Positions 2,141-22,679 of a stretch of 64,000 nt of DNA are shown here, piece by piece. Numbering within the stretch: position 1 is the stretch's first letter; each line of letters begins with the position of its first letter. The notes beneath the pieces were generated by a model that saw nothing but the letters and a program-made list of their open reading frames with translations, did not search any database and was not told the origin of the DNA. The stretch is from contig OZ024753.1 in NCBI GenBank assembly GCA_964016885.1, positions 11,842,001 to 11,906,000 of the forward strand, read 5' to 3'. This stretch comes from Eledone cirrhosa. Taxonomy: Eukaryota. A program made the translations under genes and the position numbers.

Positions 2141-2205
2141 TATTTTATCTGATGAAAGCGCACCATAATTTGCTTTGGTGTCCTTGAAATATGTATAATG
2201 AAATA
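2141..2205 (+). ncRNA. minimal type I hammerhead ribozyme (family A)
   Basis: tattttat-CTGATGA-aag..cacca/tggtg..ctt-GAAA-tatgta-TA-atgaaata; 8-bp stem I with one GU pair. Confidence 0.75.
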
Positions 2206-2936: not shown

Positions 2937-4135
2937 TCACGTTATAAATTGGGTGTTGAGTTCTAGTCTATTATTGATTGGTGGTTGTGTTTTGTCTATA
3001 ATTAGTGCTTCCTTAATTCTAAGATCGCCGAGGTATCTTTCCTTAGTTTCTATCCTAAATGTTATGGTTTTGTCGGTGTTTTTGCATTTCACTAGGTTTT
3101 TCTTAAATGATGAAGCGTTAGTATTGAGGTCTTCTTTTATTCTTATGTGAAGTGGTCTGGTGGTGCTACCTACGTAGAAGTTGCTGCATTTGTCGCACTC
3201 TAGTCTGTATACGACGTAAGCCTGGTGGCATAGGTCTGTGTCGTTGATAGGGCAGTTGGCTAGCCTGCAGCGGTTGTCATGTCTGGTGGAGTGTCTTTTG
3301 GTTAGCTGTCCGCGTAGAGAAGGTCCTAAGTGAGCTAGTTGGATATCTAGTCCCTCTCGTCTGATGGCTCTGCGGATGGCTGTTGTTTCGTCACTGAAGT
3401 GTGGGATCTTCAGGAAGCAAGTGTTAGTGCCTCGGGTGTGGTGTCCTCTGTTCTTTCTGGCACGGTTTGTGGTGGATGTCGGGTATGCGTTCAGTTTGAG
3501 TACTTCCAGGAAATGTGTGTCTCGGTCTCTAGCGTCGGTGCATTTGTTCTGGATACGTGTTAGTTCGTTCCTTATGTATCCGAACTTAGCGCCGGCTGAG
3601 AGGGCCGATCTGAAATGTACGAACAGGTCCCTGATGGCAGCTTTTTTATAGAAGCAGGTGTGGATATTGCCTTCATCTATTACCCTAAGTTGGAAGTCCA
3701 GTAGGGATAGGGATCTGCGGTCATTGGGGTGTTCCATGCTGAACTTTATACTGGCGTACATGCTGGAGAATGTTGTGTATATTTTATCCGCCTCCTCACA
3801 GGATGATGTAAGGATGAGTATGTCATCTACATATCGGGTGAAGAAGGTACGAGAATGGCAGGTGTTGAGGGCTCGGCATTCTAGCTGGTTCATATAGGTG
3901 ATGGCCAGCAGGCCCAATCCCATGGGTAATCCTGTTGTCTGTATGTATGTGTGGTGGTGGAAGGTGAAGTACGTGTTGTCCACCGTAAAGGACAAAAGCT
4001 GGTGTATGTCCCTCGGATGTACAGTGGATGTCCTCTGCGACCACGCAGTCCCTTAATAAATCGACAGCTGGATGAGCGGGGACTAGTGTAGAGACAACGT
4101 CGAGGCTAAAGGCGTATCTATTTAATTTAAGTTGT
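2937..4135 (-). pseudogene. Penelope-like retroelement, RT plus C-terminal GIY-YIG endonuclease, 5'-truncated
   Basis: ORF 2937-3995 has QTTGLPMG, FTRYVDD, SLSLLDF, YKK, a Cys linker CRLANC..C and YVVYRLECDKCSNFYVGSTTRPLHIRIKE..KEALII..PPINNR. An upstream frameshifted AFSLDVVS motif lies near 4095-4120. Confidence 0.92.
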
Positions 4136-4510: not shown

Positions 4511-4634
4511 TTATATATTTATATATATATATATATATATATATACTGAAGTAAATGTTAAGTGGAAATATCGAAGAATTAGAGCATTTGGTCCATAAGA
4601 CGAGTTTAGTATAAATAATTACAACAGTGACAAA

Positions 4635-4682
4635 CAGGGACTTAAGTTTCGTTGAGTTCTGGGCCTCAATTCATTCAGCTTG
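4635..4682 (-). ncRNA. hammerhead ribozyme variant (family B, CUGAAUGA core)
   Basis: caag-CTGAATGA-a-ttgag/ctcaa-c-GAAA-cttaag-TC-cctg. Confidence 0.6.
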
Positions 4683-4734
4683 TCATGAGAACAGCAGAAA
4701 AGACCTTGGTTCTTTGTTTTTATTTTTCTCATGA

Positions 4735-4783
4735 AAGGCTGAATGAATTGGGGCCCAGAAACCCAACGAAACTTGAGTACCTG
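4735..4783 (+). ncRNA. hammerhead ribozyme variant (family B, CUGAAUGA core)
   Basis: agg-CTGAATGA-a-ttggg/cccaa-c-GAAA-cttgag-TA-cct. Confidence 0.62.
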
Positions 4784-4801
4784 TTTATGTCACTGCTGTA
4801 A

Positions 4802-4834
<33 letters not shown>

Positions 4835-4874
4835 CCATGATATGAATAAATGGAAACTATATTTATAAAACCAT

Positions 4875-4939
4875 ATTTATATTATATTTATTTCAAGGGC
4901 CACCAAAGCAACTTTGGTGTGCTTTCATCAGATAAAATA
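4875..4939 (-). ncRNA. minimal hammerhead ribozyme (family A)
   Basis: tattttat-CTGATGA-aag..caccaaag/ctttggtg..ctt-GAAA-taaata-TA-atataaat. Confidence 0.7.
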
Positions 4940-5055
4940 CAAAGATTGTTTTATAAATAAAGACGTACCCATGAAAATCGAACCTTATCAGCCCCGATAA
5001 GGTTCGATTTTCATGGGTATCTCTTTATTTATAAAAGCCCACCAAGGTTGCCCTT

Positions 5056-5089
<34 letters not shown>

Positions 5090-5140: not shown

Positions 5141-5312
5141 GACTTTTTTGTTGGTTGATAAAAGTGGTAGTTCTAATAGTATTAACATCAGTATCCAGAT
5201 GACATCTCACAGATCCGAAAAATATTAATCATTAATAAATATACAACATATTACAAAAACAAAGCAAAAAATAAAGCAAAAAGCCGTATAATCGTTCACG
5301 GAATTTTTCATT

Positions 5313-6545
5313 ATGGATTGGCAGTATCGGTAGAGGGTCGGACGCCATGCTTTGCAGCACAGTTACGTCCCTTTGCGGACTGAGTTCAAATCTCGCCGAG
5401 GTTAACTTTGCCTTTCATCCTTCAGGGGTCGATAAAATAAAGTACCAGTAATGAACTGGGATAATTGCTGGCCTGGTGCCAAAAGTAGAAACAATTATTG
5501 CCATTCTGACTTCAAATCCCGCCGAGGTTAACTTTGCCTTTCATCCTTACGGGGTCGATAAAATAAAGTACCAGTAATGTACTGGGATAATTGCTGGCCT
5601 TGTGCCAAAAGTAGAAACAATTATTATTATCATAAGTAAAACTATAGGTAGGTAATGTGTCTATGATTCTCTTCTCTTGTTATCGTGTTCAATCAAAGTG
5701 ACAACCCAAATACAAGCGACTGGAAACTTTGAAAATGAAATATGTCAGATTTGATTTTTCCTGCTACCGATACCTTAACGACAAAATTCACCTGTGTACA
5801 TGTATTTTTTGTTTACATTTTATTTTCATTGATTTTATTTTCATTGATTTTGTTGACATTTCTTTTTTTTTTGCGGGGTGGGGAGAGAACGGGCTATATT
5901 TGGAAATGTTTACGTATCTTTCGAATTCCCGGTCCATCTTTCCATTATTATTTTATGGATTGGCAGTATCGGTAGAGGGTCGGACGCTATGCTTTGACGC
6001 ACAGAGTTACGGTCCTTGTCATTCTGAGTTCGAATCCCGCCGAGGTTAACTTTGCCTTTCATCCTTACGGGGTCGATAAAATAAAGTACCAGTAATGTAC
6101 TGGTGTTATTGCTGGCCTTGTGCCAAACAGTAGAAACATTTTATTATTTGCAGTGGATTGACAGTATCGGTAAAGGGTCGGACGCCATGCTTTGCAGCAA
6201 AGAGTTACGGTCCTTTATGGTCCGAGTTCAAATCCCGCCGAGGTTAACTTTGCTTTTCATCCTTACGGGTGGGGTGGGGGGGGGGGTCGATAAAATAAAG
6301 TATCGGTAACACACTGAGTTAATTGCAGGCCTTGTACCAAAAGTAAAAACAATTATTTTATTATTTGCAACATAGAGTTACGGCCCTTTATGATCCGAGT
6401 TCAAATCCTGCCGATGTTAGCTTTGCCTTTCATCCTTACGGGGTAGATAAAAGAAAGTATCAGTCACGCACTGGGGTCGATTTAATCGACTTTCCCCCTC
6501 CCCCAAAATTGCTGGCCTTGTGCCTATATAAGAAACCATTATTTT
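5313..6545 (+). mobile_element. cluster of about five head-to-tail tRNA-derived SINE copies
   Basis: Repeated tggattggcagtatcggtagagggtcggacgccatgc..gagttcaaatcccgccgaggttaactttgcctttcatccttacggggtcgataaaataaagtaccagt..ggccttgtgcc..gtagaaac at ~5313, 5510, 5955, 6155 and 6370; A and B box-like motifs present. Confidence 0.85.
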
Positions 6546-6576: not shown

Positions 6577-6860
6577 AAGTCATGGGCAACCTGCGGTTCG
6601 CGTATCTTTCTGAATTGCTCACCTAAGTGAAATCTTTCCGATTTTTTTTTACCCCTAATTTTCAGTTGTAATTTATCTGTCTATCATTTTTACGATCGAG
6701 GAAAACAACTTGTACGAATTCTGAAGATACAAATCAAAACAACCCGAGTTGCCGCTCTTCGTTTTAATCTCGGCACAAACGTAAATTAGCGCCTGCGGCC
6801 CGCCTGATGAAGAGCCATATCTCACGCGGCCCGCTTCTCGAAAAAGTTTGCCCATGCCTG
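6577..6860. mobile_element. hAT-type MITE (family 1)
   Basis: Ends aagtcatgggcaa / ttgcccatgcctg, subterminal gcggcccgc motifs, perfect 8-bp TSD ttctaaat (6569-6576 and 6861-6868). Confidence 0.88.
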
Positions 6861-7222
6861 TTCTAAATCATCGGCTACTTGTTCTGAGTCTCGCTCATTC
6901 ACTTCTATTCCTTTTGTATTTTCATCCATCTATACATCTTCACTTTCACCCTGTTATGATCATTTTTGTCATGTCGAACGTCTATTGAATTTCATACTTT
7001 ATTTCTTCCACATTGTATTATTAAATAAAACGAATTTTTTTATTCAATCTTATACAGAAATGTCTTACTCCATGACATTAGACTTTGATTAAAATTTGTA
7101 AGTAAATAACTTTAATTATTTTCGTTGGTGTATTTTTCGAAACCGGGGAGCTTTGTGGGAAAGCATTTCAATCATTTTTATCTTGTAATTTTCTTTTCAG
7201 ACGTACAACGTTATCTTGATGA

Positions 7223-16705: not shown

Positions 16706-16998
16706 CAGTCATGGGCAACATGCGGCCCGCGAAGCTTTCTGAATGGCTCGCCTATGTCACCTAAGTGAAATCTTTCTGATTTTTTTTACCCTAACTTTTC
16801 AGTCGTAATTTATCTTTCTATCATTTTTACGATCGAGGAAAACAACGTGTACGAATTCTGAAGAAACAAATCAAAACAGCCTGAGTTACCATCCTTTGTT
16901 TTTAATGTGGGGACGAATGTAAATTAGCGCTTGCGACCTGCCTGATGATGAGCCATATCTCATGCGGCCCGATTCTCGAAAAAGTTTTCCCATGTCTG
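16706..16998. mobile_element. hAT-type MITE (family 1)
   Basis: Colinear with 6577-6860; ends cagtcatggg / cccatgtctg; decayed TSD ctctatat / ccctaaat. Confidence 0.85.
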
Positions 16999-17229
16999 CC
17001 CTAAATCATAAAGTCGACAATAATTAAAGAAGGTTACATGATTATAGTGTTTGCTGTTATTAGCATGGACCGGACACAAAGGTTAGGTCTAAACAGTCTT
17101 ACGATACACTACGGCTCTTCTAAACAACATTATTGTCTAACACATTCATCCAACAGTCCCACGGTATATACAACATCTTCACGTCATTTATTCTTTGTAT
17201 TTCCCTGACCCTAGATTTCCCAATAATAA

Positions 17230-20174: not shown

Positions 20175-20546
20175 CAATATAAACAGTTTTATAGATAAAT
20201 ATATTCGACATACCGTAATAAACATCAACTTCATTTGAAGAGGTTCACTCTAGCAGTGAAAATACAGAGAGAAAGAAAGAGAGAGAGAAAAGAGGGAAAT
20301 AAGAAAGAAAGAAAGACGAAACGAAGAAAAGGAAGAAAAAGAAGAAAAAAAAGAAAAAGAAGAAATGCATGGGACAAAATAGAGAGATGGAAAAATAGAT
20401 AAAGCGAAGAGCTTCATGTAAAGAGACCGAAAGAGATATATATATATATATAGAGAGAGGAAATAGAGATAGATACATATATAAATATAGATATAGAAAA
20501 ATTAGGTAGTGGGAGGTCATTTTGAGTAAGTGTATCAATGATGCAT

Positions 20547-20581
<35 letters not shown>

Positions 20582-22281
20582 GCTCAAGTATTAATGTAAG
20601 GGAGATATAGAGAGATATAGAGAGATATAGAGAGAGAAAAATTTAAAAATAGCCAGACATATTCGAGGCGTAGAAAACCCTATGTTTTAATGTATTAGTA
20701 TTTATAAAACTTACACTATATTGTAAATATCAGTATTCCTGAATGAAACAAGTATTCACAATGCGTGAAAATTCATTATCTTATGTTTAGTTTTTTAAAA
20801 AATTCATATGTCTATGTGAATCCAACTGATTCACTCCGCAAATTCAAAGTTACCGGAAAACATTCTCAATGTGGTATAAACATTTGAGCGTATTATTATT
20901 CTTGCGATTACTCTACAAGATTATCTATCAAGCAGAAATAGAGAGCAGATTTCAATATACTAATCGAAAATATATATTATATTATAAGCAGAGATAACAA
21001 TAATAATGATAATAAGTAAAAATATATAAAAATATAAAAATATAGAATAGAAAACTAAAAAAGAATATTACGAAAGAATATTACATAATAAAAATATTGC
21101 ATATTAAAAATAAAAATACTATGTTTTAAAATTATTACGTATTAAAACTTTACATATAAAAATATTAAAAATAAAAATAAAATAAAATAAAAAATAAAAA
21201 ATAAAAATATAAAAATATTATAGAATACTACAATACTAAAAGAATAAAAATAAAAATAAAAATAAAAATAAAAATAAAAATAAAAATAAAAATAAAAAAA
21301 ATAAAAATAAAAATAAAAATAAAAAATAAACCACAAAGAACAACCCTTCAAGGTTAATTGACAATATATTGCCAAGTTCACTACAAGACAAAGCCAAAAA
21401 TTATCTATCAAATCACATCTAGCAAGGAATATCGCAAAAAAAATTGATTTGATAGATAATGATTTGATAGATAATTTTTGGCTTTGTCTTGTAGTGAACT
21501 TGGCAATATATTGTCAATTAACCTTGAAGGGTTGTTCTTTGTGGTTTATTTTTTATTTTTATTTTTTTTATTTTTATTTTTATTTTTATTTTTATTTTTA
21601 TTTTTATTTTTATTTTTATTCTTTTAGTATTGTAGTATTCTATAATATTTTTATATTTTTATTTTTTATTTTTTATTTTATTTTATTTTTATTTTTAATA
21701 TTTTTATATGTAAAGTTTTAATACGTAATAATTTTAAAACATAGTATTTTTATTTTTAATATGCAATATTTTTATTATGTAATATTCTTTCGTAATATTC
21801 TTTTTTAGTTTTCTATTCTATATTTTTATATTTTTATATATTTTTACTTATTATCATTATTATTGTTATCTCTGCTTATAATATAATATATATTTTCGAT
21901 TAGTATATTGAAATCTGCTCTCTATTTCTGCTTGATAGATAATCTTGTAGAGTAATCGCAAGAATAATAATACGCTCAAATGTTTATACCACATTGAGAA
22001 TGTTTTCCGGTAACTTTGAATTTGCGGAGTGAATCAGTTGGATTCACATAGACATATGAATTTTTTAAAAAACTAAACATAAGATAATGAATTTTCACGC
22101 ATTGTGAATACTTGTTTCATTCAGGAATACTGATATTTACAATATAGTGTAAGTTTTATAAATACTAATACATTAAAACATAGGGTTTTCTACGCCTCGA
22201 ATATGTCTGGCTATTTTTAAATTTTTCTCTCTCTATATCTCTCTATATCTCTCTATATCTCCCTTACATTAATACTTGAGC

Positions 22282-22316
<35 letters not shown>

Positions 22317-22679
22317 ATGCATCATTGATACACTTACTCAAAATGACCTCCCACTACCTAATTTTTCTATATCTATATTTATATATGTATCTATCTCTAT
22401 TTCCTCTCTCTATATATATATATATATCTCTTTCGGTCTCTTTACATGAAGCTCTTCGCTTTATCTATTTTTCCATCTCTCTATTTTGTCCCATGCATTT
22501 CTTCTTTTTCTTCTTTTTCTTCCTTTTCTTCGTTTCGTCTTTCTTTCTTTCTTATTTCCCTCTTTTCTCTCTCTCTTTCTTTCTCTCTGTATTTTCACTG
22601 CTAGAGTGAACCTCTTCAAATGAAGTTGATGTTTATTACGGTATGTCGAATATATTTATCTATAAAACTGTTTATATTG

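Follow-up and report, generated by a model that had tools for sequence, protein, structure and literature searches.

Minimal hammerhead ribozymes of Penelope-like elements (PLEs) have been described with the core consensus CUGANGAH and a G10.1–C11.1 pair, and have been reported in pairs on opposite strands (Cervera and de la Pena, 2014, PMC4209133). For insertions of EN+ PLEs, the form described is a truncated copy in inverted orientation that is tailed at one end (Arkhipova et al., 2013, PMC3846280; Craig et al., 2021, bioRxiv 10.1101/2021.04.23.441226). For the Poseidon PLE of Anolis (PAc), the element protein was reported to cut and extend both strands, with reverse transcription starting at two internal sites of the RNA, and to insert in vitro without a need for ribozyme cleavage (Frangieh et al., 2024, PMC11167929). 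Among published hammerhead core variants, the A6a insertion is represented in Perreault et al. (2011, PMC3088659) by one marine-metagenome example, which was assayed and reported as active, although slow or low in activity.

The locus analysed here lies in a 64,000-nt stretch of Eledone cirrhosa DNA (the window) and shares many traits with these systems. Like the minimal hammerheads described in PMC4209133, its motifs are of type I, with a long stem II, a short stem I and a palindromic helix III suited to dimers; they belong behind an RT-EN ORF, occur in mostly truncated copies with pairs on opposite strands, and have the identical 8-nt junction length before 10.1. They differ from those hammerheads in the extra base at 6a, found in most subfamilies here, and in the A–C at 10.1–11.1 of the younger ones; Fig. 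S3 of that paper, with 56 representative rows, shows no core with two bases between CUGA and GA, a form that the descriptor used there excludes. The original prediction had suggested an uncharacterised hammerhead variant and a comparison with published core-insertion variants. That comparison yielded a match, as CUGAAUGA is the published A6a insertion, and the suggestion of novelty falls: the core letters are the same as in Perreault et al. (UGAAUG is legible, reversed, in the text of their Fig. S6). The A6a of that paper is, however, a single microbial-metagenome case in another scaffold, whereas here the core is found in hundreds of copies of an animal retroelement, with an inferred return to the canonical form.

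In its form the insert matches the head-to-head inverted 5'-truncated copies with a one-end tail described for EN+ PLEs (PMC3846280; Craig et al., 2021), but the two tails differ by ~65 nt, compared with 30–40 (PMC3846280; bioRxiv 10.1101/2021.04.23.441226), the window insert has no ORF, and any target duplication is unreadable in the TA tract. PAc offers a parallel in its two reverse transcription starts downstream of the hammerhead, extension of both strands and AT-rich target; it belongs to a different clade, has a canonical core and a hammerhead that is described as cutting with protein help, whereas cutting is only predicted here (PMC11167929). Animal non-LTR retrozymes likewise carry a type I hammerhead and are PLE-related (bioRxiv 10.64898/2026.07.22.740005; PMC7229834), but no head-to-tail tandem array of monomers is present at the locus, and coding sequence belonging to the family lies upstream. 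Insert architecture, ribozyme type and core variant have thus all been published before. Our literature search found no report of A6a in a PLE and no animal retroelement lineage in which A6a passes through subfamilies and is then followed, at constant length, by the canonical core, although Lunse et al. (2017) or the bioRxiv supplements may contain the core, and nothing on a CUGAAUGA PLE family in the literature on octopus hammerhead ribozymes.

Taken as a whole, the locus is best explained, with a probability of about 75%, as two 5'-truncated PLE 3' ends joined head to head in a (TA)n tract, each with a CUGAAUGA hammerhead motif that is predicted to be a weak, dimer-only cutter. The family provides a dated natural series in which copy numbers record transposition success: cleavage across this series would tell whether activity tracks amplification or is irrelevant to it. 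It is also an abundant form of PLE hammerhead that is missed by CUGANGA descriptors and by Rfam.

The insert and its two hammerhead motifs

An imperfect inverted repeat between (TA)n tracts, as originally described, is present at ~4611–4809, but the insertion itself reaches further, to ~4546, where the minus-arm tail is longer by 65 nt of family sequence; the whole insert is ~265 bp long (Table 1). The arms differ from each other by 7 substitutions and 2 indels across ~85 nt, in agreement with the earlier statement that this is not a read fold-back.

Table 1. Features of the insert and its flanks (window positions)
Feature	Position	Strand	Basis
(TA)n target tract, left flank	4512–4545		sequence
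Minus-arm long-tail extension, ~65 nt	4546–4610	-	family comparison
Minus-arm stem I 3' strand and short-tail segment	4611–4638	-	
Minus-arm type I minimal hammerhead motif	4639–4691	-	
Head-to-head junction of the 5'-truncated arms, ~19 nt without clear family match	4692–4710		
pLTR stub of the plus arm and its type I minimal hammerhead motif	4711–4779	+	
Plus-arm stem I 3' strand and short tail, TAATTATTTAT end at the (TA)n tract	4780–4809	+	
(TA)n target tract, right flank	4810–4834		

Both arms are hammerhead-like, as had been proposed, and the core, GAAA, stems and triplet could be located on each strand in the order stem I, CTGAATGA, A, a 5-bp stem II, C, GAAA, CTT(G/A)AG, T(A/C), stem I. 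In the plus arm, the core CUGAAUGA occupies 4739–4746 and GAAA 4768–4771; stem II is UUGGG/CCCAA, stem III is CUUGAG, and the triplet GTA (GUA) ends at 4779, after which the cut is predicted. The minus arm has its core CUGAAUGA at 4678–4671 and GAAA at 4650–4647, with stem II UUGAG/CUCAA, a palindromic CUUAAG and the triplet GTC (GUC) ending at 4639, the predicted cut being after that position. The stem II sequences are those given in the original prediction. Compared with the commonest letters of the family, the minus-arm motif has 5 substitutions and 1 deletion, one of these changes in stem I, and the plus-arm motif 2 substitutions and 1 insertion, again with one in stem I, so that stem I contains one mismatch in each arm.

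The GAAA box and an NUH triplet are present in both arms in type I order (GAAA-C-loop-G-UA/UC). The core, by contrast with the CUGANGA of PLE minimal type I hammerheads, reads CUGAAUGA in both, that is CUGA-AU-GA, with one extra base after A6 and with G8–A9 and GAAA intact, as in A6a. In this register the unpaired base between A9 and 10.1 is missing and the total junction length equals that of the PLE consensus; relative to CUGANGAH there is thus no net insertion, the spare base being placed before G8 and not after A9. The pair closing stem II, 10.1–11.1, is an A–C mismatch in both arms instead of G–C, a feature absent from the earlier description. An Rfam scan of the window gave no match at the gathering threshold, and single arms, when folded, showed no preference for the hammerhead structure (z 0.2 to 1.4 and -0.3). 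We also considered the ATG within CUGAAUGA as an ORF start and rejected it, as the frame closes after 4–10 codons (by reading); an ORF start in locus L118 follows a different leader.

The difference between the two stems II had been interpreted as a compensatory A–U to G–C change, an interpretation that the genome does not bear out. TTGAG..CTCAA occurs only once in the 3.0-Gb genome, at the minus arm. Of 217 copies listed, the first 100 were tallied by hand: stem II is altered in 37, and these changes break a pair in 31 cases and produce G–U in six, with none compensatory. On this comparison, the minus-arm double change is two transitions in a decaying copy, a private mutation and not covariation. 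The GUC and GUA triplets are both there as described, but GUC is equally private to the minus arm, GTA being found in 113 of 116 parsed copies.

Just past the short-tail end there is a hairpin, ACTCGTCC-nnn-GGACTGAGT (window 4590–4608, minus strand; also in loci L093 and L097), which is kept between the PLE family and a sister family with 46% EN identity, although its copy in the minus-arm tail is degraded. This hairpin is a candidate protein-binding or RT-start signal.

The family and its inverted pairs

A search of the genome with the plus arm gave at least 57 matches (40 of 1,274 candidates were scored), and two disjoint patterns gave 188 and 197 matches (at least 385, a count that includes a few segmental duplicates and comes from searches favouring copies with intact flanks), compared with none for the reversed controls; the motif is therefore not a chance match. 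Longer copies of the family contain broken coding sequence for RT followed by GIY-YIG, which ends ~300 bases upstream of the motif and is absent from the window stub. A Cys linker, C-x-C-x5-C-x5-C, precedes the GIY-YIG motif, and YVG is also in frame (locus L008). In the ESM Atlas, the EN frame of the family and the ORF of the sister family fall with RT/GIY-YIG clusters (0.95–0.98); a Pfam search of these two sequences and a PDB search of the sister ORF gave no match. Neither 6 candidate regions nor 20 extended loci contained a full-length copy flanked on both sides by direct pLTRs. Family tails end in TA repeats, and the window insert has (TA)n on both flanks. On these family comparisons, we identify the window pair as a stub of a PLE. 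The Cys linker and TA targeting suggest the Neptune type; (TA)n targeting has been linked to the Neptune Cys linker, although such a linker is described from Nematis as well (bioRxiv 2021.04.23.441226).

The window itself contains, on the minus strand at 2937–4052, a 371-aa frame in which an RT domain (Pfam RVT_1, E 5e-7) precedes a Cys linker and a GIY-YIG-like motif. A link between this frame and the insert was rejected, as that DNA is common to no other family locus; it belongs to another PLE, outside the CUGAAUGA family. The sister PLE family (loci L092–L097 and L111, G000) is abundant and younger, with open frames of up to 619 aa; it has the canonical CUGAAGA core, a palindromic CAAUUG stem III and a very short stem II with U–U at its base.

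Examination of 141 loci revealed 41 distinct inverted pairs, 40 of them head to head, and in 36 of these 40, the window pair included, one tail is long and the other short. Neighbouring copies on the same strand are segmental duplicates or separate insertions. Rare letters are common to both arms in many pairs and not in others, so that the arms may stem from one template molecule or from two, and in some pairs (L014, L018, L024 and L109) the cores of the two arms are discordant. The pair in the window is an ordinary PLE insertion product, of the usual inverted kind, and not two independently maintained ribozymes. Probably, as in the Anolis PLE, the element enzyme cleaved the TA tract on both strands and the RNA was copied twice, from two internal starts downstream of an uncut ribozyme; joining of the two short cDNAs at their truncated ends would then have left a head-to-head pair of stubs.

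Core variants across subfamilies

Among the older copies, which have the stem III CTTAAG (first 100 of 188 listed), 68 carry CTGAATGAG and 7 carry CTGAATGAA by hand tally; the U is kept in 97 of the 100 and the canonical register is seen in a single one. The U is present in all 9 copies that have the oldest loop. The younger CTTGAG copies (first 100 of 197 listed) comprise 44 in the canonical register (CTGAAGAA-), 41 with TG, 7 with CG and 8 others, and an independent pattern divided 96 younger copies similarly, into 45, 39, 5 and 7. Their canonical form is CUGAAGA-AA (~45%), and an exact CUGANGA core is present in 37 of the 96 (the CUGAAGAAA subfamily). The extra nucleotide is thus shared by both arms through descent, as claimed, and is a heritable trait: in the older subfamilies CUGAAUGA is nearly fixed, while loop II and the UTR diverged. 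The stronger claim, that the insertion is fixed in the family, fails with the canonical register of 45/96 and 44/100 younger copies, a result that goes part of the way towards the refutation set out in the original prediction.

Position 7 varies between U and C, with C in 5 of 96 and 7 of 100 copies, which fits a free N7. At 10.1–11.1, G–C is the commonest combination in the four older groups and A–C in the younger ones. The subfamilies succeed one another from CUGAAUGAG through CUGAAUGAA to CUGAAGAAA at a constant junction length, and natural variants available in one scaffold are CUGAAUGAG, CUGAAUGAA, CUGAACGAA, CUGAAGGAA and CUGAAGAAA. The CTGAAGAAG core is a singleton, found in one old-type arm, and an amplified canonical ancestor (CTGAAGAAG with CTTAAG) was rejected on account of this single copy. 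In a scan of metagenomes, the combination of the old core and CTTAAG gave 0 matches. No RNA run was among the sequencing runs listed for the family, which counts as evidence in neither direction.

The order of the subfamilies was examined in trees built from sequence upstream of the ribozyme, with the ribozyme left out. In these trees CTGAAGAAA is nested among CTGAATGAA copies and CTGAATGAG copies are basal. In a midpoint-rooted tree of 26 copies, the CTGAAGAAA clade has a support of 0.997 and includes a single CTGAATGAA and a single CTGAAGGAA copy as well. An EN-only tree of 31 family copies and 9 outgroup rows has bootstrap values of 85–93 at the enclosing nodes and 65 for the canonical clade; its outgroup root is unstable (bootstrap 48/94), yet CTGAATGA comes out as ancestral under either placement. 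The oldest loop type has terminal branches of ~0.12, the youngest of 0.04–0.08. The canonical-core branch is likely the youngest and, from these trees, derived from CUGAAUGA copies.

We compared 7 old with 9 young long copies, 2 of the old ones having been found with a pattern in which some of the compared letters were fixed. Differences occur at 60 of 187 clear columns in the upstream UTR and at 4 of 8 in loop II, compared with 2 of 42 in the motif outside loop II (Fisher p = 5e-4, calculated for 3/42). Per-copy mismatch rates by region were set aside because the search patterns fixed those letters. The stem III variants ACUUAAGU, ACUUGAGU and ACUCGAGU are predicted to form an 8-bp self-duplex (-5.8 to -10.7 kcal/mol), as is stem III of the sister family, and none of the three folds as a monomer. 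In these models, the palindromic stem III fits the dimer mode proposed for PLE hammerheads.

Activity, alternatives and neighbouring elements

The CUGAAUGA motif is quite probably a weak dimeric cutter. In active source copies, two motifs would pair by way of their self-complementary stems III and cut slowly after GUA, perhaps with the help of the element protein; the extra base that PLE hammerheads usually have after A9 would here be at 6a, and in the youngest branch G8–A9 would have slid back into the standard register. The window copy itself probably folds into a long hairpin and is dead: the predicted free energy of the whole-insert hairpin is -114/-112 kcal/mol, versus -4.0/-2.4 for stems I and II. 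Its two motifs are on opposite strands, so that they cannot pair as a dimer within one RNA, and no activity is predicted for the pair, since each arm is antisense to its partner.

An artefact, whether of assembly or of read fold-back, is hardly credible as the origin of the palindrome, and so is a chance origin of the motif: the palindrome is surrounded by low-complexity DNA and Rfam gives no score for the motif, but the arms are unlike at 9 places and in tail length, and at least 385 family matches stand against no control matches. It is scarcely more plausible that the pair is a functional two-ribozyme unit, one per strand, maintained by selection at the locus. Such a unit might be read from the minus-arm A–U pair at a place where the family has G–C and from the NUH triplets of both arms; this reading is largely refuted by the stem II double change that is unique in the genome, the absence of compensatory changes among the 37 found elsewhere, the stem I mismatch in both arms, the -114 kcal/mol hairpin into which the arms pair, and the 40 further such pairs among the loci examined.

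The more serious question concerns catalysis in the family, as the same PLE stub could carry a CUGAAUGA that is catalytically dead (G8U and A9G in the standard register), its fold kept for RNA dimerisation, protein binding or promoter function and its return to CUGAAGA due to drift. We consider this rather unlikely, even though mutants of the Anolis PLE ribozyme were reported to insert unimpaired in vitro and no reads to end at its cut site (PMC11167929), inserted copies retain sequence past the cut site, A10.1–C11.1 subfamilies amplified well, and the A6a of Perreault et al. is low in activity (PMC3088659). The success of the A–C subfamilies indeed argues, from copy numbers, that catalysis may have mattered little for amplification. 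Against a dead core, GAAA, the UA triplet, C3/U4/G5/A6 and the GA before stem II are constant over ~30% UTR divergence while N7 varies between U and C; the A6a core is among the active variants listed in PMC3088659; and the derived branch arrived at exactly the canonical core via two substitutions. Compared with the weak dimeric cutter that we prefer, a stronger version can be put forward only tentatively, and we regard it as somewhat doubtful: that the PLE lineage mostly ran on an active dimeric hammerhead with a spare nucleotide in the U-turn and then acquired the canonical core through two substitutions at constant length, selected for faster cleavage. If so, the PLE protein–RNA complex would require the junction length and not the CUGANGA string, and a class of PLE ribozymes would be missed by standard searches.

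Several other elements occur in and around the same DNA. A second, unrelated hammerhead-like family with a canonical CTGATGA core and GAAA-TATG-TA is found at window positions 2149–2196 (plus strand) and 4931–4885 (minus strand); its copy at 4931 is part of a fold-back (4860–5066) that adjoins the insert in the same TA-rich island, and its CTGATGA..GAAA-TATG-TA motif is also seen in loci L092 and L102. Further hammerhead-like families, with canonical or U3–A8 cores, are present in loci L099, L102, L103, L106 and L108, within a few kb of CUGAAUGA-family copies and often in inverted pairs. A near-perfect palindrome of 2.3 kb (window ~20266–22588) has CTGAATGA on both arms, at 20739 and 22124, with no evident hammerhead register at either site. 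Two related motifs, CTGATGA..GAGCC..GGCCC..CGAAA ending in GTTTGCCCATGCCTG (6804–6870 and 16942–17010), resemble the ends of a small DNA transposon rather than ribozymes. The stretch 5311–6450 holds several copies of a SINE-like repeat, perhaps similar to cephalopod SINEs, and one tandem 126-bp duplication.
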